Shown here: positions 2,703-23,406 of the stretch, piece by piece
Layout: each line of letters starts with the position of its first letter
How positions within the stretch are numbered: position 1 is the first letter of the stretch
DNA from: a virus
Strand: one strand, 5' to 3'
UHGV virus genome: UHGV-0853564
DNA length: 43,023 nt
Notes under the pieces: generated by a model
Databases searched by the model: none
What the model was told of the DNA's origin: nothing
What the model saw: the letters and a program-made list of their open reading frames with translations, nothing else
Position numbers and translations under genes: made by a program

Positions 2703-2734
2703 TTGCACACCCCAATATAATAGGGTACTATTCA
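2703..2734 (+). promoter_or_regulatory. promoter-like element TTGCAC-N17-TACTAT with internal TATAAT and AATAG-N4-CTATT dyad
   Basis: ttgcacaccccaatataatagggtactattca, ~25 nt upstream of ATG 2760; near-identical copies at 11659..11690 and (reverse) 22995..23026. Confidence 0.5.
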
Positions 2735-2759: not shown

Positions 2760-3086
2760 ATGCGTAAATTAGTATTAGCTCTGGGGTTTATGTCTTTTGC
2801 TACTTTTGGGGGCCCGTGCGAACAGGTATTTAGTGAATCTGTTCTTATGGCTTCTGGTGTGCTCGATAAAGCCGACCCTACTATTGTAAAGGCATTTAAG
2901 GACTCTACAGTCCGTGAATGTGAGGCTGCCGTAGATGTCGGTAAATCAGGCCTACCTCCGCAGGCCGTAACATATACGGTAATACGTTCGGTAGAGAAAA
3001 ACGGGGACGCGTTTTACAGCCTACTGACAGCCACCCGTCTGCAAATGGTGATGACTGGCTGGGCGATAGGCGCGGAAAGTAAATAG
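2760..3086 (+). CDS. small secreted protein (N-terminal signal peptide), moron gene
   Basis: GAGGA RBS; N-terminus MRKLVLALGFMSFATFGG is signal-peptide-like; opposite strand to flanking tail genes; AT-richer than surroundings. Confidence 0.6.
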   Translation: MRKLVLALGFMSFATFGGPCEQVFSESVLMASGVLDKADPTIVKAFKDSTVRECEAAVDVGKSGLPPQAVTYTVIRSVEKNGDAFYSLLTATRLQMVMTGWAIGAESK

Positions 3087-3151: not shown

Positions 3152-4282
3152 ATGGCCCGGAAGAAAATAACCGACGAACAGTTGCAGGAAGAATTGAACG
3201 CCGGTATGAAGAATATCGACATCGCCCGTAAATACGGCGTCTCAGACCGAGTTATTCGTATCCGTAAAGCGAAGCTGGCGAAGAAAGGCGTAGGTCACGG
3301 TCGTGACGTTAGCCATCTTGTGCCGGACGGCTACAAGATTAAAGGAACGTCGTCACTGGTGGACGAGTTCGGCAACACTAAGTTGCAATGGGTTAAGACC
3401 GACACCGACGCCGAACGTCAGGTCGAGTTGATGAAAGCCGTAATCGAGGGCATGAAGTCAGATATTACGCCAGTTGCGCCTGTTAAAGCCTCCCGCACCA
3501 AACGTGATGACAAGCTACTCAATCTTTACACGGTATCTGATTTCCATCTCGGTATGCTGGCCTGGGCCGACGAGAGCGGCGACGACTGGGACATGAAGAT
3601 TGCAGAGGACCTGTTCTCTCGATGGTTCGACGCAGCGTTTCAGAAAGCGCCGGACGCGGGAACGGGTGTTATTAACCTGCTAGGTGACCTTGCGCACTTC
3701 GACAGTCTGGATGCAGTTACGCCAGCGAGTGGTCACGTTCTTGACGCCGATACCCGCTACCAGAAACTTGTACGCTACATGATTCGCATGGTGCGACGTG
3801 TTGTTGATATGGCGCTGGTTAAGCATAAAAATGTTCGCTTGCTTATCGTGCAAGGGAACCACGACGAAAGCGGAATGATTTGGTTAGCTGAAATGTTCAG
3901 TACGCTATACGACAACGAGCCGCGTGTATTCGTCGATACGTCGCCGGATGTTTACAAGATGGTGCAACACGGCAAAACGACATTGTTCTTTACCCACGGA
4001 CATAAAGCGCGCTTCGACGCTATCGAACCGGTTATGATCGCCAAGTTCCGCAAAGCGTTTGGTGAGAGCGTTTACAGCTACGCCCACGTAGGCCACCTAC
4101 ACCATCAGAAGATTGTAGAAAGCCGTAATATGATTGTTGAGCAACACCGCACCTTAGCGGCGAAAGACGCCTACGCCTCTCGCGGTGGATGGATGTCGGG
4201 CCGGAGTGCAAATGTAATTACTTATAGCGCCGAATATGGCGAGGTTGCGCGTTTAACTATTTCACCGGAGATGCTGGGATGA
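3152..4282 (+). CDS. HTH domain fused to calcineurin-like metallophosphoesterase (SbcD/Mre11-like motif set)
   Basis: 376 aa; N-terminal HTH-like segment (NIDIARKYGVSDRVIRIRKAK); motifs SDFHLG, LLGDLAHFD, VQGNHDE, THGH, VGHLHH match metallophosphoesterase motifs I-VI; GAGGA RBS. Confidence 0.8.
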   Translation: MARKKITDEQLQEELNAGMKNIDIARKYGVSDRVIRIRKAKLAKKGVGHGRDVSHLVPDGYKIKGTSSLVDEFGNTKLQWVKTDTDAERQVELMKAVIEGMKSDITPVAPVKASRTKRDDKLLNLYTVSDFHLGMLAWADESGDDWDMKIAEDLFSRWFDAAFQKAPDAGTGVINLLGDLAHFDSLDAVTPASGHVLDADTRYQKLVRYMIRMVRRVVDMALVKHKNVRLLIVQGNHDESGMIWLAEMFSTLYDNEPRVFVDTSPDVYKMVQHGKTTLFFTHGHKARFDAIEPVMIAKFRKAFGESVYSYAHVGHLHHQKIVESRNMIVEQHRTLAAKDAYASRGGWMSGRSANVITYSAEYGEVARLTISPEMLG

Positions 4283-7491: not shown

Positions 7492-8000
7492 CCCCGGTAC
7501 ACGTTAAACGAGAAGCCATTGTTAAGGCCGCCACACAGTAACGGGCGTAAGGCATCGTCCGCGGCGGTAATCGCGGTCGTGGCGCCACTGCTGCCGTTGT
7601 TGAAGTACGTCACGGTTACTGCGCCCTCTACGCGCTCGGTCTGTACAGCGCGCCCATCTGAGTTAGCTCGTACCTCAGTACCTGCGCCATACGTAACGGC
7701 GGCGATTACCTGCGCAAGAATCACCTGCTTCGGGATGACGTTGTTAGCTACAGGGAACCCGTTTAACGTAACGCCAGTGCGAGGATACGCAAGAGACTGT
7801 TCGGCGGTTACACGACGACCGCACATCTGCGGTTCTGCAAGCCCTACATAAGTAGCACCGTTGCGTAAGGCCACCTCTGCTGCGGTATCGTCTTCTGGCA
7901 GCTCAAGGCCATAATTAGCCGCTAACGCGCGGGCGTCAGCCAGGCTAACGTAACTGTCAGCATTAGGGACGATTTCTCCCGTTTCCACGATTAGCGGCAT
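7488..8000 (-). CDS. putative head-tail connector / head completion protein
   Basis: 170-aa ORF, overlapping start-stop with neighbours. Confidence 0.4.
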   Translation of the reverse strand: MPLIVETGEIVPNADSYVSLADARALAANYGLELPEDDTAAEVALRNGATYVGLAEPQMCGRRVTAEQSLAYPRTGVTLNGFPVANNVIPKQVILAQVIAAVTYGAGTEVRANSDGRAVQTERVEGAVTVTYFNNGSSGATTAITAADDALRPLLCGGLNNGFSFNVYRG

Positions 8001-8003
8001 AAA

Positions 8004-8183
8004 TTATTCCTCTGACTTACGGCGACGACGCTTAGTACCGCCACCGTTGTTGTGCGCTTCTTCGCTGTCCGGTTGAGTCGCAACCAGTTCATCCGCTCCT
8101 ACAACACCGCGAACCGGCATCACCTGACCGCCAACAACGTCGACGTGTGTGTACTTTTCGCGGATTACGTAATTATCTGCCAT
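8004..8183 (-). CDS. small hypothetical protein with basic C-terminus (59 aa)
   Basis: ATG at 8183..8181; ends ...GGGTKRRRRKSEE; below ORF-track length cutoff. Confidence 0.3.
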   Translation of the reverse strand: MADNYVIREKYTHVDVVGGQVMPVRGVVGADELVATQPDSEEAHNNGGGTKRRRRKSEE

Positions 8184-8946: not shown

Positions 8947-8971
8947 TTAGGAATCCTCTTAGTAAATGAAA

Positions 8972-8991
8972 AGAGGGACCGAAGTCCCTCT
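8972..8991 (-). terminator. stem-loop AGAGGGAC-(UUCG)-GUCCCUCU after capsid gene
   Basis: Perfect 8-bp stem with UUCG tetraloop on minus transcript, between capsid and Ig-like genes. Confidence 0.4.
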
Positions 8992-9007
8992 CGATTATAG
9001 CTTAACC

Positions 9008-10057
9008 TTAAGCCCCGACACCAGTTACCAGGAAGGCAATCGGTACGTGCTTACGTTCAACCACACGGTTCCAGTTGGAGGCGTTCGCCAGGTCCTGCCA
9101 GGAAGCAGAACGTGCGACAGTCTCGGTGCCGTTGCCGGTGATTACCGCGCTGGTGAAGCTGTAGCCCAACGGATGCAACAGCCAGGTCTTACGGGTCCAC
9201 AGAGTTTCAACACCACCACCGTTGCCGCGGGACGCTTCGCGTTCATATTCCAGCGGGTTGGACGGAGAACCTTCACCGTAACCGATAGCGCCGTTTCCGA
9301 AGATGATGGAGATGAACTTACGACCACCGCCAGTACCAACTACGGTCATGCTGTCGTCAACAATCACACGGTAGCCCTGGTAGGTGGCGAACATGGTGTT
9401 GTTGTCAGCATCACGGATGTAGTCGATAAGCTGCTGCTTACGTGCCTGCGCATAAACAAAGCTGTGCATCGCGATAGCGCCCAGCACTTCACCGCCGTTA
9501 CCCATCAGAGCATCACCCATAGTCTGGGTAGCGTCAATGAATGCGCCGGAATCGAAGCCAAGAGTGGCGGACACGTCGATAACCATGTCGTTCTGCTCGT
9601 GGTAAGCATCGGTAGCAGCTACGTTGTCGTTGTACAGACCGAGCGCGGTGGCAATCAGACGGCGTTGTGCCTGACGTTGCCAGAAGTTATCCAGACGGGA
9701 CGCTACGGATTGCAGCGGATTCTGGCTGGTCAGTTCGACAGTCAAATCCGCCTGACCAAAACCTTCGTTCAGGTAGGCAACACGGGCCATCATCTCGCCG
9801 GTTTGCACGTTACGCGGGGTAGCGATGTCCTGATACACATCGTTCGAGCAGTTTGGCTCGATAGACGTATCAATCGCTTTCCAGAAAGGAATATTAGCGA
9901 CATTGGACGGACCGCGAGCAATCTCAGCGGCGTACGGAGTCGGGGTCAGAATACCGGACTGGAAGAACGCGGTTTTTTCTACCGGGTCCTCTGTCATATA
10001 AGACGCCAGGACCGGGATGTTGCCAGTTACGATATCGCCGATAGTGGTAATTGCCAT
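9008..10057 (-). CDS. major capsid protein
   Basis: 349-aa ORF immediately downstream of scaffold-like gene and followed by hairpin; size and synteny typical of HK97-fold capsid gene. Confidence 0.7.
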   Translation of the reverse strand: MAITTIGDIVTGNIPVLASYMTEDPVEKTAFFQSGILTPTPYAAEIARGPSNVANIPFWKAIDTSIEPNCSNDVYQDIATPRNVQTGEMMARVAYLNEGFGQADLTVELTSQNPLQSVASRLDNFWQRQAQRRLIATALGLYNDNVAATDAYHEQNDMVIDVSATLGFDSGAFIDATQTMGDALMGNGGEVLGAIAMHSFVYAQARKQQLIDYIRDADNNTMFATYQGYRVIVDDSMTVVGTGGGRKFISIIFGNGAIGYGEGSPSNPLEYEREASRGNGGGVETLWTRKTWLLHPLGYSFTSAVITGNGTETVARSASWQDLANASNWNRVVERKHVPIAFLVTGVGA

Positions 10058-10059
10058 TA

Positions 10060-10761
10060 TTATTTCCTCAGGGCTTTAAGTTGCCGTTCAAATTCGGCAG
10101 GGTTCGATTTATACAGAGCTAAACGCTCCGCTTCACTCATGTCTTTAAACGCTGGTGCGGCCCCGCCGCCTTTGCCACCGGAAGCCCCGCCGCCGGAAGC
10201 TGCATTTGCTTTAATCAAATGCGAAAACGCTTTATGTTCGCGCAGGTATTTGCGGAACTGTTCAGGGTCAGTCGTGATTACGTTGCCATCTGCGCCGACA
10301 AACTTAGTAACCACGTCATCACCTTCAAACTCAGTCTTAACGAACGGTGCAAGGATTTCCACTGCTTCCGGGGTGATAAAGTCACCAGCGAAAGAGCCTA
10401 ACACCGCTTTACGTTCGCTGCCGAGGATGCGCTCTGCCATTCTGGAGATGCGACCATCTTTCTCGGCTAGCACCGGGTCATACTGGCTACGAATCGTCTT
10501 TTCGAACTCGTCCATCTTACCGGCGGCTTTTAACGCCTCCTGGTGTGCGCGCTGCCGTTCTTCTTCGGCCTCTTTTGCTTTGCGAGCGGCTTCTTTCTTC
10601 TCCGCGAGCAATGCTTCCTGATTGGCCTTAAGCCCGGCAACCTCTTTCTCAATCAGCGCCTGAACTTCTTCAGCGGTGAACATTTTCGGCGCGTCACCGC
10701 CACCGGTTTTATCTTCTGCCCCAGCTTCTTCCTGGAACGGATAACGTAAAAAACGATTCAT
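10060..10761 (-). CDS. scaffolding protein
   Basis: Highly charged, alpha-helical, E/K/A-rich (EKKEAARKAKEAEEERQRAHQEALKAAGK); ATG at 10761..10759 with AGGGGA RBS preferred over track start 10815. Confidence 0.6.
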   Translation of the reverse strand: MNRFLRYPFQEEAGAEDKTGGGDAPKMFTAEEVQALIEKEVAGLKANQEALLAEKKEAARKAKEAEEERQRAHQEALKAAGKMDEFEKTIRSQYDPVLAEKDGRISRMAERILGSERKAVLGSFAGDFITPEAVEILAPFVKTEFEGDDVVTKFVGADGNVITTDPEQFRKYLREHKAFSHLIKANAASGGGASGGKGGGAAPAFKDMSEAERLALYKSNPAEFERQLKALRK

Positions 10762-10841
10762 AGTCAGTATGTCCCCTGGACGTTGGAATCCGGGCCACCC
10801 GGATTTACATGTCAAGAATAAATTATTCCAACATGCAAGGC

Positions 10842-10858
10842 AACTATTCCAGAATATT
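10842..10858. promoter_or_regulatory. imperfect dyad AACTATTCC-AGAATATT, next to TTATTCCAACAT (10823..10834)
   Basis: Shares ACTATTC half-site with promoter elements; both motifs recur at 11591..11617. Confidence 0.35.
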
Positions 10859-11107
10859 CCTCACGTAATCCTGCAACATGAACACTTTCAGTCTCAGTTG
10901 CCGTACACATTCGGCGTTCCGGACGTCAATAGCTAAATCCTCGTCCGCGTCACTACTTGGTGGCGCCAGTTTGCACGGCGGCTGCATCATCGTCGTATCC
11001 GGGGATGGAATTGGCGTTTGCGACGGCGCGGGACTTGAGCAGGACGCGAGCATCGTCGAAAGTGCACACGCTGCGGCCAGGCGTTTTAATGTACTTAACG
11101 ACTTCAC
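10844..11107 (-). CDS. putative o-spanin (Rz1-like lipoprotein), overlapped with i-spanin gene
   Basis: Signal peptide with lipobox L-A-S-C followed by Pro-rich mature region; starts inside the 10953..11339 ORF in another frame. Confidence 0.5.
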   Translation of the reverse strand: MKSLSTLKRLAAACALSTMLASCSSPAPSQTPIPSPDTTMMQPPCKLAPPSSDADEDLAIDVRNAECVRQLRLKVFMLQDYVRNILE

Positions 11108-11339
11108 GGGTAATCACCTCTGATTTCGTCTTGCCTTCGTTGTCAGCGGCGGCGGCCTTTGATTCGTCCTGCTGCTGCCGTTGGGTTTTCTTCGCCAACT
11201 CCGCCTGTGCTTTCTGCTGTTGCTGCGAAACGAGATTAGCCCGGCCTTCGTTCCAGCCGGCGCGGTATTGATAGTAGCCGTGTGCATATAACAGGATGAT
11301 GAAACATGCTCCCGCTACGACAGTTGCTTTAAGATTCAT
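10953..11339 (-). CDS. putative i-spanin (Rz-like)
   Basis: N-terminal TM segment then Q/A/K-rich helical periplasmic region; contains the lipoprotein ORF in +1 frame. Confidence 0.5.
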   Translation of the reverse strand: MNLKATVVAGACFIILLYAHGYYQYRAGWNEGRANLVSQQQQKAQAELAKKTQRQQQDESKAAAADNEGKTKSEVITREVVKYIKTPGRSVCTFDDARVLLKSRAVANANSIPGYDDDAAAVQTGATK

Positions 11340-11363
11340 GTTTCCCCTTTCTCGATAAGTAAA

Positions 11364-11383
11364 GCCCCGCCTTAAAGCGGGGC
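11364..11383 (-). terminator. stem-loop GCCCCGC-N6-GCGGGGC followed by T-rich tract on minus strand
   Basis: Perfect 7-bp GC stem, immediately upstream of the i-spanin start. Confidence 0.4.
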
Positions 11384-11590
11384 GCTAGTCCTTATCATTT
11401 AAACATAGAAACGGCGTAATCTCTGCAAACCAGTTACTTTTTACACAAGCAATAGAGTATGGCCCTTCCGAACGCGTCAGCGTAACTACACTCAGGACTT
11501 ACGTCCCGCTCCGTTACCTGCCCGCGCCGCGGTCGCTTGTTCATACTTCACAAGCTCAGGTGGAGCTTAGCACATTTTCAGTGAAAAGTC

Positions 11591-11606
11591 AACTATTCGA
11601 ATAGTT
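11591..11606. promoter_or_regulatory. perfect 16-bp palindrome AACTATTCGAATAGTT (operator-like)
   Basis: Contains both orientations of the GAATAGT half-site; followed by TTATTCCAACAT (11606..11617). Confidence 0.45.
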
Positions 11607-11658
11607 TATTCCAACATTTACAAATGAGTGGAATAACTGGAATACATAAACAAATAGT

Positions 11659-11690
11659 TTGCGCACCCCAATATAATAGGGTACTATTCA
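11659..11690 (+). promoter_or_regulatory. promoter-like element TTGCGC-N17-TACTAT (copy of 2703..2734)
   Basis: ttgcgcaccccaatataatagggtactattca, ~24 nt upstream of ATG 11714. Confidence 0.5.
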
Positions 11691-11713
11691 GTTAACTTAA
11701 ACAGGAGGTATTT

Positions 11714-11938
11714 ATGCCGATTAGATTTACAAATCAAAAGAAGTCTAGAGATGTACGCCCCGGAGAAAAGGTGCAGGTATTTGACGAGTGGTACTGGGTT
11801 CGTTACATAGATTATCTTGGTGGTAAAAAGCTAAATTTACGTTTGCAGCACGAAAATGAGCCTCTTAGCCCGTTCTATGAAAACGATAAAATAGTCATAA
11901 CCATGCCCGATGATTTGGTGATAGACGTGGAAGTTTAA
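11714..11938 (+). CDS. hypothetical 74-aa protein, moron gene
   Basis: AGGAGG RBS; own promoter-like element and terminator; opposite strand to flanking structural genes; AT-rich. Confidence 0.55.
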   Translation: MPIRFTNQKKSRDVRPGEKVQVFDEWYWVRYIDYLGGKKLNLRLQHENEPLSPFYENDKIVITMPDDLVIDVEV

Positions 11939-11944
11939 AACTAA

Positions 11945-11965
11945 AGCCCCGTAATGGGGCTTTTT
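11945..11965. terminator. rho-independent terminator AGCCCC-GTAAT-GGGGCT + T5
   Basis: Hairpin followed by TTTTT on plus strand; lies between convergent genes. Confidence 0.65.
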
Positions 11966-11966
11966 A

Positions 11967-12428
11967 TCATTCCGGCTTAGTAACCTTCGCCGCTTTACTA
12001 ACGGCCTCTACGCCATCGGCATCGGCGACTTTAACGAAGTATTCACCAACTGCGTTAACAGTCAGAGACAAAGCCTCTTCAGGTGCGTTTACAACTTCCT
12101 TACCGTCTTTGTACCAGGTCAGCGCATACGGCGCTTTACCGGCCTTAACTTCGACAGTGATAGTTGCACTGCCATCGGTCAGTTCGGCGTCTTTCGGTTG
12201 CACGGAGAAGTACACATCACCAGCGTCCGCCAGATACGGAATCTCATAGAGCATACCGGCGGCGGGCAACGCAATACCGGTTTTATCTGCAAACGGCATA
12301 TCATCTACAGGCGTACCAAGTACACTTTCATCTTCAATAAACACCACGTTCTCGCCGGAGCCAGACACGCGGGCGTACTGAACTACGCGACGCGACGGCA
12401 CATCAGTTACTTTGAAAAAGCCCATCAT
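11967..12428 (-). CDS. Ig-like domain-containing virion protein
   Basis: 153 aa; C-terminal TITVEVKAGKAPYALTWYKDGKEV resembles Ig-like fold. Confidence 0.45.
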   Translation of the reverse strand: MMGFFKVTDVPSRRVVQYARVSGSGENVVFIEDESVLGTPVDDMPFADKTGIALPAAGMLYEIPYLADAGDVYFSVQPKDAELTDGSATITVEVKAGKAPYALTWYKDGKEVVNAPEEALSLTVNAVGEYFVKVADADGVEAVSKAAKVTKPE

Positions 12429-20241: not shown

Positions 20242-20535
20242 TTATTTATGACGCCAGATGTATTGTCGTCTCTGCGGTTTCGTCGGAATATCATCGTATC
20301 CCAGCGATTTCCAGTAATTAAATAGCCGATTAGCGATTGCAGCGCGTTCCTTTGTCTTGAACTCACCGAGATTCACGGCCTTCCCGTTCTGAAACCCACA
20401 GGCGCGTACCGCTTTGCGCCTGGCCTGAATCTCAGGGTACAGCGCGTTACGGCGACGCTTGTGTATGCGCGTCTTCGCTCTCGGTGACAGCGGCACAAGG
20501 CCGCTTCGTTTCAAGATGTCAGTTGCAAGGGACAT
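20242..20535 (-). CDS. hypothetical basic protein (possible AP2-like DNA-binding motif)
   Basis: GKAVNLGEFKTKERAAIANRLF loosely resembles AP2-type domain; weak. Confidence 0.35.
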   Translation of the reverse strand: MSLATDILKRSGLVPLSPRAKTRIHKRRRNALYPEIQARRKAVRACGFQNGKAVNLGEFKTKERAAIANRLFNYWKSLGYDDIPTKPQRRQYIWRHK

Positions 20536-22994: not shown

Positions 22995-23026
22995 TGAATA
23001 GTATCCTATTATGTTGGGGTGTGCAA
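22995..23026 (-). promoter_or_regulatory. promoter-like element for leftward operon (reverse copy of 2703..2734)
   Basis: Minus-strand reading ttgcacaccccaacataataggatactattca; second GAATAGT at 23029..23035. Confidence 0.5.
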
Positions 23027-23406
23027 GAGAATAGTTACGTTGCCGTTGTGATTCTTCAGGCAGGGTTGTGCCTTTATTCTTATTACTTGGTAACTAAAGG
23101 GCAGGCCTTAAGCCTGCCCAATAATCGTTACATTTTTACGGTTGCGAATCTACGGCACATTAAGAAAATCAGATACTTAAGAGATATGCCGCCGGTGAGA
23201 ATAGAGCTTGCCCAGGGCAACCGGAGATACTTAGGGAGGAAAGTTACGATAATTCTTATGTTCAGTAAACTTTCGCTTAACACTTTGCTTGCGCTGCGCG
23301 CAACTGCGTTTTAAGCGGTTTTACAAGGTGAACAGGAATCAAAGTAACTAAGATATAGAAGCACCTTAAACGAAGATTTCCATAATGTCAATAGGTGCGA
23401 TTATGT

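Follow-up and report, generated by a model that had tools for sequence, protein, structure and literature searches.

Between the genes for a Hoc-like immunoglobulin-like (Ig) virion protein and the i-spanin, the 43,023-nt viral genome UHGV-0853564 (analysed at its full length and called the window here) holds two back-to-back modules: an accessory-gene cassette on the plus strand and a minus-strand unit that consists of a structured RNA and the control DNA for the spanin-scaffold-capsid gene block. The window is the genome of a siphophage of the genus Kagunavirus (Guernseyvirinae), and the region containing both modules (11340-11966) matches Kagunavirus and Jerseyvirus genomes, the top match being Escherichia phage vB_EcoS-Ro145c2YLVW (96.5%). 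As judged by sequence comparison, the RNA belongs to an undescribed, structured family that matches no Rfam family and is not the put RNA of phage HK022. The first-pass annotation of this DNA had centred on a plus-strand open reading frame (ORF) of 74 amino acids (aa), which it took for a moron, and had assigned to that moron the ~330 bp upstream of it (11384..11713) with a perfect 16-bp palindrome. The assignment of the upstream DNA was not borne out: this DNA persists in phages without the cassette, points the other way and is the most conserved and least ordinary part of the region; it appears to be the control region and leader RNA of the spanin-scaffold-capsid block. We are highly confident that both the cassette and the structured RNA exist.

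A conserved two-stem RNA on the minus strand

Among 40 loci, identity over positions 11458-11557 was 98.6-99.4%, the highest of any ~100 nt in 4.5 kb, as compared to 73-95% (mostly 80-92%) for the spanin, Hoc and capsid genes. A stretch of ~150 nt, beginning at the palindrome and running to about nucleotide 105 of the predicted transcript, was invariant in 11 phages that differ by 5-11% in the flanking genes. The maximum lay at the RNA core, with 91% identity at the cassette boundary (11608-11657) and 82-84% at the other flank (the 3' end of Hoc), which argues against simple homogenisation by recombination. Conservation at the level of DNA, whether as a recombination hot spot homogenised by cassette exchange or as a protein site such as an origin or packaging signal, is therefore highly improbable in our estimate. 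The stretch does border a slot where cargos are swapped and does hold repeats and a palindrome, but its conservation peaks away from the cassette boundary, compensatory changes in 19 of 30 pairs (see below) are unexpected for a DNA site, and the RNA is kept, and diverges, in phages that have no cassette.

The RNA occurs in five sequence types, of which A and F are found at the late position considered here and B, C and D at an early one, and the five types, folded separately, gave the same two-stem architecture. Stem I (GCUUGU/ACAAGC) lies near the 5' end, starting 2-3 nt from its predicted position, and is joined by a linker of 2 nt in the window (0-2 nt over the types) to stem II, which is long and irregular (75 nt) and closed by CCG(C)GGNGC/GCN'UUCGG. 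Stem II combines conserved internal-loop bases, the conserved unpaired bases being GAGUGUAG in types A, B and D and UAGCGUAA in type F, with an apical hairpin that varies by type (GGGAC-GUAA-GUCCU, GUGCC-AUUA-GGCAC, CACG..CGUG, GGUGC-GUUA-GCAC and GGGCGC-CACA-GCGCCC); it is followed by GGAAGGGCC..CUAUUG. A covariance model (R1), built from 8 sequences of types A and D with the proposed structure, found 76 instances in 91 sources, all five types included. In the model-based alignment 94.0% of the cells paired, as compared to 28.7-40.2% when partners were slid by 1-3 columns; 19/30 pairs, and 113 cells, changed on both sides, and none of 500 shuffles matched the observed pairing or covariation. 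The fold and position of the RNA are thus predicted from sequence with good support. A boxA-like reading of CUCUAUUG was dropped, as it agreed by eye at 5-7 of 8-12 positions and was not conserved across types.

The description of the upstream ~330 bp as noncoding held for protein, although the stretch carries this conserved structured unit on the minus strand. Records of several relatives annotate a 36-aa hypothetical protein here (11544..11434, minus strand), and that the stretch encodes it is barely credible: the ORF lacks a start codon in two of the types (B and F) and in type C is cut short by a stop at codon 20, its ATG lies in the stem I loop with no Shine-Dalgarno (SD) sequence before it, and its product matched no PHROG or Pfam family. 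The annotation is probably spurious.

Along the minus strand, TATTCC-AGT-TATTCC repeats are followed after a 17-nt gap by GGAATA-AAC-TATTC-GAATAG, the -35 hexamer, a 17-bp spacer and TGc-TAAGCT; beyond the -10 come a G+C-rich segment, an A+T-rich segment, the hairpin 11383..11364 and 24 nt with the spanin SD. The hexamers, the 17-bp spacing and the TGn were retained across the five types even though the spacer itself diverged (type F reads TAGACT-17-TGtTACGCT), and the promoter region was invariant in 11 type A loci. Transcription of the RNA is predicted to start near 11557. The control DNA upstream of this promoter stays beside the Hoc terminator when the cassette is absent; its dyad and TTATTCC repeats are common to type A and type F loci, and the palindrome, which the first-pass annotation had reported correctly, is in its perfect form an elaboration of type A only. 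The centre of the palindrome lies 41.5 bp before the predicted start, which would be a classic position for a dimeric activator or repressor, and the DNA ahead of the promoter suggests that the promoter may be regulated. A third GGAATA-N3-TATTC match at 7997-8010 was set aside as an SD/ATG junction, as were those at 4108 and 9329 of locus L079. Elsewhere in the window, just before a holin-like gene, lies a gene for a 96-aa arginine-rich protein (20242-20532, minus strand; phrog_9632, no Pfam match), whose C-terminal half looks, by eye, like a DNA-binding motif of the AP2 type. This protein may be a regulator and is a candidate for the partner of the dyad or the RNA.

In the window, the hairpin that ends the less conserved 3' part of the leader has 8 pairs and the tail TTTACTTATC and is terminator-like; paired C>T / G>A changes preserve its stem in loci L006 and L012. 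The type A hairpin, with the tail UUUACUUAU, was flagged as terminator-like; the equivalent hairpin of type F has no U tract and was not flagged as a terminator.

Range of the RNA and its early paralogue

We counted 181 phage records with type A and 269 with type F, together ~450 of the ~462 Guernseyvirinae, counted as records with a capsid protein at least 80% identical; on these sequences the RNA is near-universal in the subfamily. Most Salmonella Jerseyviruses carry the more divergent type F at the late position, without a cassette. Scans for the RNA pattern in viral, metagenomic and bacterial collections returned Guernseyvirinae-like contigs and revealed no evident carrier from another lineage. 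The scan of bacterial genomes (596 Gb) returned 80 loci, of which one was real (L131, 74 bits, probably a mis-binned phage contig), the others being chance matches, mostly in G+C-rich taxa; the matches from metagenomes, made by pattern without a model check, were mostly contigs of Kagunavirus size (~44 kb) or fragments. The nearest capsid relatives outside the Guernseyvirinae are less than 45% identical, too distant for comparison. Rfam 15 gave no match at gathering score in the window or in L079 and L027, through which type C and F loci were included, and matches overlapping the RNA were at chance level only (E >= 0.15). Our literature search found no description of the RNA in this phage group.

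In some Kagunaviruses a second copy, ~80% identical to the late one, lies between a helix-turn-helix (HTH) gene and the early-operon promoter and is co-oriented with the early operon. The early copy differs from the late copy by compensatory changes and has the same TTGACT-17-TGnTAAGCT promoter and a terminator of its own. At one late locus (L042:2214-2328, IMG/VR contig 3300045988_039442) a type D core, otherwise early, is joined to a type A 3' tail; the locus looks like a recombinant of the two paralogues, and the early and late copies appear to be interchangeable. In early copies of type C, a CTCA run just before the terminator has ~2 to 7 units, depending on the phage (L032, phage Golestan, about 1700-1740; L027, 8665-8685; L029).

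In the window, the early slot where other Kagunaviruses carry the early copy is occupied by a different noncoding unit of ~270 nt (23085-23352, minus strand). This unit has a promoter-like TTGACA-17-TAAGGT at ~23390-23360 and a hairpin GGGCAGGCTTAAGGCCTGCCC at ~23110-23090, was found at 70-96% identity in 362 phage records and has a far more stable predicted fold than shuffled sequences (z = -4.59, 0/200). Model R1 misses it, and it is a candidate second structured RNA.

A swappable cassette on the plus strand

The 74-aa ORF with its AGGAGG ribosome-binding site was found as the first-pass annotation had described it, between the Ig-like virion gene and the spanin and scaffold genes. Comparison with relatives bore out its character as a moron-type insertion. 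By megablast, 181 phage records matched the region and only 5 of them spanned the ORF; in the remaining records the alignment broke off near the SD, at 11707-11717, beyond which the sequences diverge. In annotated relatives a 67-aa, 173-aa or 179-aa ORF takes its place. The collected loci comprised 40 distinct versions of the slot, 8 empty and 32 occupied, the cargos ranging from ~33 to 242 aa and belonging to at least 14 unrelated kinds. The only cargo with a Pfam match was an N6/N4 DNA methylase; others were, by inspection, lipoprotein-like, small membrane proteins or HNH-like. The 32-nt promoter-like element was present, with 0-7 mismatches, in 32/32 occupied and 0/8 empty slots, and its offset from the RNA core was constant in the occupied slots except at one locus, where it lay 4 nt closer. 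In the empty slots (8 distinct Kagunavirus loci, and the Jerseyvirus Ent2) the Hoc terminator directly adjoins the TATTCCAGTTATTCC repeats, with no ORF and no 32-mer, so that the cassette sits between genes that are adjacent in these relatives. Its composition is atypical as well, with 39.6% GC as compared to 51.0% in the window and 52-56% in the neighbouring genes.

The terminator described as the ORF's own is a real hairpin, but it is common to the cargo ORF on the plus strand and the Hoc-like gene on the minus strand, and an equivalent hairpin follows Hoc in relatives without any cassette. Since empty slots keep the Hoc terminator adjoining the repeats, the comparison assigns the terminator to Hoc and limits the inserted unit to the putative promoter, SD and ORF. 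The early-type 32-mer and SD would drive synthesis of the 74-aa protein, and transcription would stop at the bidirectional terminator already present downstream of the Hoc-like gene; with promoter and terminator as fixed flanks, cargos would be exchanged between them among related phages. By this comparison the 74-aa ORF is one cargo of a swappable moron-type cassette, genuine but ordinary.

The promoter-like element was likewise present, with an identity to the copy at 2703-2734 of 31/32 (one mismatch) and not 30/32 as given earlier. There were 3 matches to the 32-mer in the window as compared to 0 in 100 shuffles, the third copy (22995-23026, minus strand, 2 mismatches) heading the early operon beside HTH and primase-helicase genes, in the window and in relatives. 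The position of this third copy suggests that the 32-mer is an early-class promoter and that the two morons are probably early-class; their coordinated expression through the common 32-mer, as proposed by the first-pass annotation, is plausible. The spacer contains an imperfect dyad (20 bp) that could be an operator. The only RNA-seq study of a Kagunavirus that was found is too coarse for the timing of the morons and classed as late a gene described as a superinfection immunity protein (PMC12645636). The copy at 2703-2734 (plus strand) would drive an opposite-strand block that begins with a 108-aa ORF (2760..3086) and, going by an annotated relative, would lie between the tail-tube and tail-chaperone genes.

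Homology and structure searches with the 74-aa protein, which the first-pass annotation had suggested as a check, returned clusters of homologues and neither an informative homologue nor a confident fold match. The protein matched phrog_8705 (function unknown) and no Pfam family; there were 8 close clusters, confined to this slot in the contigs examined, and 19 representatives at 50% identity. Its AlphaFold model is small and all-beta with a predicted local distance difference test score (pLDDT) of 69, and the fold match to the KOW/SH3-like domain I of EF-P/eIF5A was weak (best E 0.067). Another of the suggested checks, comparative genomics of the junction, showed the slot to be empty or differently filled in relatives.

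In lambdoid phages, morons as defined by Hendrix and colleagues are promoter-gene-terminator units inserted between genes of the late operon. The present cassette resembles them in lying between virion-cluster genes that are adjacent in relatives, in its promoter-like element, its atypical composition and its accessory cargo. Unlike them, it belongs to a virulent phage with no prophage expression, faces opposite to the operon, borrows its neighbour's bidirectional terminator and has for a putative promoter a copy of the phage's own early-operon promoter, which is not foreign. It also recalls the PeSL (promoter-early stem-loop) cassettes of T4-type phages reportedly described by Arbiol et al. 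in 2010, in which hypervariable small ORFs are enclosed between a stem-loop and an early promoter that recurs in the genome. In the present case the promoter-like element is found three times per genome, a single slot takes at least 14 types of cargo, and the constant flanks could serve as recombination handles. The phage family and the promoter sequence are unrelated to those of the T4 type, and we infer the recombination through the flanks.

The features of the region are collected in Table 1.

Table 1. Positions of the features of both modules and of the two flanking genes in the window
Feature	Position	Strand	Details
i-spanin	10953..11339	-	ATG at 11339
Junction with i-spanin SD AAAGGGGA	11340..11363	-	24 nt; conserved in types A and F
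3' leader part, less conserved	11364..11449	-	ends in G+C-rich hairpin 11383..11364 with short interrupted U tract
Structured RNA core, ~110 nt, two stems	11450..11563	-	covariance model 138.5 bits
Predicted sigma-70 promoter of the RNA	11564..11592	-	-35 TTGACT 11592..11587; 17-bp spacer; TGn 11572..11570; -10 TAAGCT 11569..11564
16-bp palindrome AACTATTCGAATAGTT	11591-11606		perfect; unique in window
Dyad GGAATA-N3-TATTC	11612..11599	-	upstream of RNA promoter
Upstream control DNA	11599..11644	-	half-sites GGAATA/TATTCC at 11607-11613, 11629-11635, 11638-11644
32-nt promoter-like element	11659..11690	+	-35 TTGCGC 11659-11664; 17-bp spacer; -10 TACTAT 11682-11687
SD AGGAGG	11703-11708	+	5 nt ahead of ATG
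74-aa ORF (cargo)	11714..11938	+	matches phrog_8705
Hairpin terminator, bidirectional	11943..11963	both	terminator-like on plus strand; T runs flank the stem on both sides
Hoc-like Ig protein	11967..12428	-	shares the terminator with the cargo ORF

The order of genes on the minus strand is portal, head-morphogenesis protein, Hoc-like Ig protein, the studied region, i-spanin, o-spanin, scaffold and major capsid protein. The vicinity of the head-morphogenesis gene and Hoc is a second insertion site: in L003 (fEg-Eco06) and L004 (Schulenburg) an intein is annotated inside the head-morphogenesis gene or an HNH endonuclease gene is inserted between this gene and Hoc. In the gap between o-spanin and scaffold (10780-10860, minus strand), ATGTTGGAATAATTTATTCTTGACA is similar to the stretch immediately ahead of the RNA promoter; behind it lies a hairpin AAUCCGGG-UGG-CCCGGAUU, which in Ent2 reads ACACCGGG-AGG-CCCGGUGU, the stem being kept despite the changed sequence. 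A 551-aa ORF antisense to the capsid and scaffold genes (8966-10621, plus strand) is probably a codon-usage artefact of the genes opposite.

How the RNA may act on the late operon

At all loci the RNA lies immediately 3' of its own conserved promoter-like element and is co-oriented with the gene block that follows. At the late position it is directly upstream of the spanin-scaffold-capsid genes, also where there is no cassette, with 24 nt from the hairpin to the spanin ATG; since the type F hairpin has no U tract, the RNA must form the 5' portion of the spanin mRNA there. Before the scaffold and capsid genes no further conserved promoter was found; TTGACA at 10809-10814, before the scaffold gene, was not counted as one, as it is TTGTTG in Ent2. 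Several intrinsic terminators lie within the co-directional array that runs from the early operon through the lysis, terminase, head and tail genes. A strong terminator-like hairpin (8992..8971, minus strand) follows the capsid gene directly and stands ~25 nt ahead of the next head gene, with no promoter between, so that the downstream head and tail genes depend on read-through.

The GGAATA sites and the dyad would lie upstream of an extended -10 sigma-70 promoter of the spanin-scaffold-capsid block, from which the ~110-nt two-stem RNA would be transcribed from the first nucleotides, followed by ~90 nt of looser sequence and the hairpin. The RNA would fold while emerging from RNA polymerase and would alter how the polymerase, or a recruited factor, handles the hairpin and later terminators, and the leader would thereby set the amount of transcription that reaches the capsid and tail genes. 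It would amount to an element of processive antitermination or of attenuation, comparable in its working to HK022 put or to the PR' leader of lambda. On account of its position, its two-stem shape and the paired diverged copies, we tentatively prefer to regard the RNA as a cis-acting leader controlling transcription into the late operon, a reading to which we give a little under an even chance.

In phage lambda the late leader consists of PR', the 6S RNA and tR' and works with Q. The present unit is similar in that a promoter, a ~200-nt leader and a hairpin immediately precede the lysis (spanin) and head genes. The two differ in that no Q-like protein was found here (in Schulenburg and among 16 window ORFs), the type F hairpin is not terminator-like and a pause-inducing -10-like element is not conserved. 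RNA structure is under selection here, which to our knowledge is no known feature of the lambda 6S leader. The put RNAs of HK022 alter elongation and termination by RNA polymerase without any protein (PMC9378689). Like putL and putR, the present RNA is a bulged two-stem RNA just downstream of a predicted sigma-70 promoter, co-oriented with a terminator-bearing operon; there are two diverged copies per genome (here in some phages) with compensatory changes, and no dedicated antiterminator is recognisable. Unlike put (~70 nt), it is ~100 nt long, and one copy precedes late and not early genes. For put, antitermination without protein depends on the zinc-binding domain of the RNA polymerase beta' subunit. 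A search for Q- or N-type antiterminators in the annotated relative Schulenburg and among the 16 window ORFs, compared with PHROGs and Pfam, recognised none, many small ORFs being unassigned. It is conceivable, though doubtful, that the RNA represents a new class of protein-independent processive antiterminator, put-like in function and unrelated in sequence, which would carry the host RNA polymerase of virulent Guernseyvirinae through the terminators of the late and, in some, the early operon.

Several observations weigh against a leader of this kind, or against parts of the evidence for it. The pair counts given above rest on an alignment fitted to our own model R1. De novo, RNAalifold recovered only the closing helix from a MAFFT alignment (with one pair occurring as U-A 13, C-G 9 and A-U 3 times) and only the apical hairpin from the model-based alignment, and the stability of the single-sequence fold was unexceptional (z = -1.76). 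A generic scan for the sigma-70 consensus flagged neither the cassette 32-mer nor the minus-strand promoter, the latter because its -10 TAAGCT fits the consensus at just 3/6 positions; both promoters are predicted from conservation and not from closeness to the consensus. With filters off, R1 found no second copy in the window, the late locus being the sole match, so the window has no early paralogue; over the HK022 immunity region including putL the best match was 5.7 bits (E = 1.4) and did not fall at put, which lowers the case that the RNA is a put RNA and not the case that it works like one. A -10-like pause element was not conserved, since types A, C and D have AAGTAT in the loop of stem I and types B and F do not. 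The type F hairpin, if it is no terminator, leaves nothing to antiterminate locally. Downstream of the early paralogue come a terminator and then a distinct promoter, which gives it the look of a free-standing RNA gene and not of a necessary leader, and the literature on this phage group gave no transcript mapping, start-site or termination data.

The early paralogue also speaks for a trans-acting small RNA (sRNA) that is released by termination or processing and binds a host RNA or protein, which we consider unlikely. The RNA does have its own promoter and 3' hairpin, the early copy is flanked by promoter and terminator with a separate promoter after them, and a near-invariant ~100 nt would suit the fit to a conserved host partner. 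Such an sRNA could also be a by-product of the late-promoter leader, for which StxS, an sRNA by-product of the PR' transcript of Shiga-toxin phage, is a precedent (PMC7547250). Against this, no stretch of 13 nt or more in the phage is complementary to the RNA, which also has no similarity to E. coli genomes (host base-pairing targets were not searched), the type F hairpin lacks a U tract, and the orientation and the 24-nt spacing to the spanin gene are fixed at every locus seen.

A further reading is a 5' untranslated region that controls the stability or translation of the spanin-scaffold-capsid mRNA with no effect on RNA polymerase, for example a stem-loop protecting against RNase E or a binding site for an autoregulatory phage protein. 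Stem I does start within 2-3 nt of the predicted 5' end, the type F leader is contiguous with the spanin mRNA, and the hairpin in the spanin/scaffold gap, as described above, also keeps its stem in Ent2. However, a 75-nt stem II with invariant internal loops is needless for a protective hairpin, and in the early paralogue a terminator and a promoter separate the RNA from any coding sequence, and so we rate this quite unlikely. The layout of the unit, with a promoter, a ~100-nt structured domain with invariant unpaired bases, a ~90-nt linker, a hairpin and an SD, also fits a riboswitch-like sensor, with a ligand pocket in stem II and an expression platform in the hairpin that would gate the late genes in response to a host metabolite or signal. 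We found by inspection no mutually exclusive antiterminator pairing, which makes this reading less likely; the type F hairpin is not terminator-like and no Rfam riboswitch matched, and a sensor of this kind is very unlikely.

Kagunaviruses and Jerseyviruses count among the phages of E. coli and Salmonella that are isolated most often, and they serve in therapy and biocontrol. The RNA before their capsid genes, near-universal and under strong constraint, offers a handle on late gene control in this group. If the RNA modifies RNA polymerase by itself, it would join the handful of known antiterminator RNAs and provide a compact part for engineering read-through. The cassette slot, for its part, is a naturally permissive site with a fixed putative promoter, useful for the insertion of payloads, and a place to seek accessory genes that may act in defence or counter-defence.

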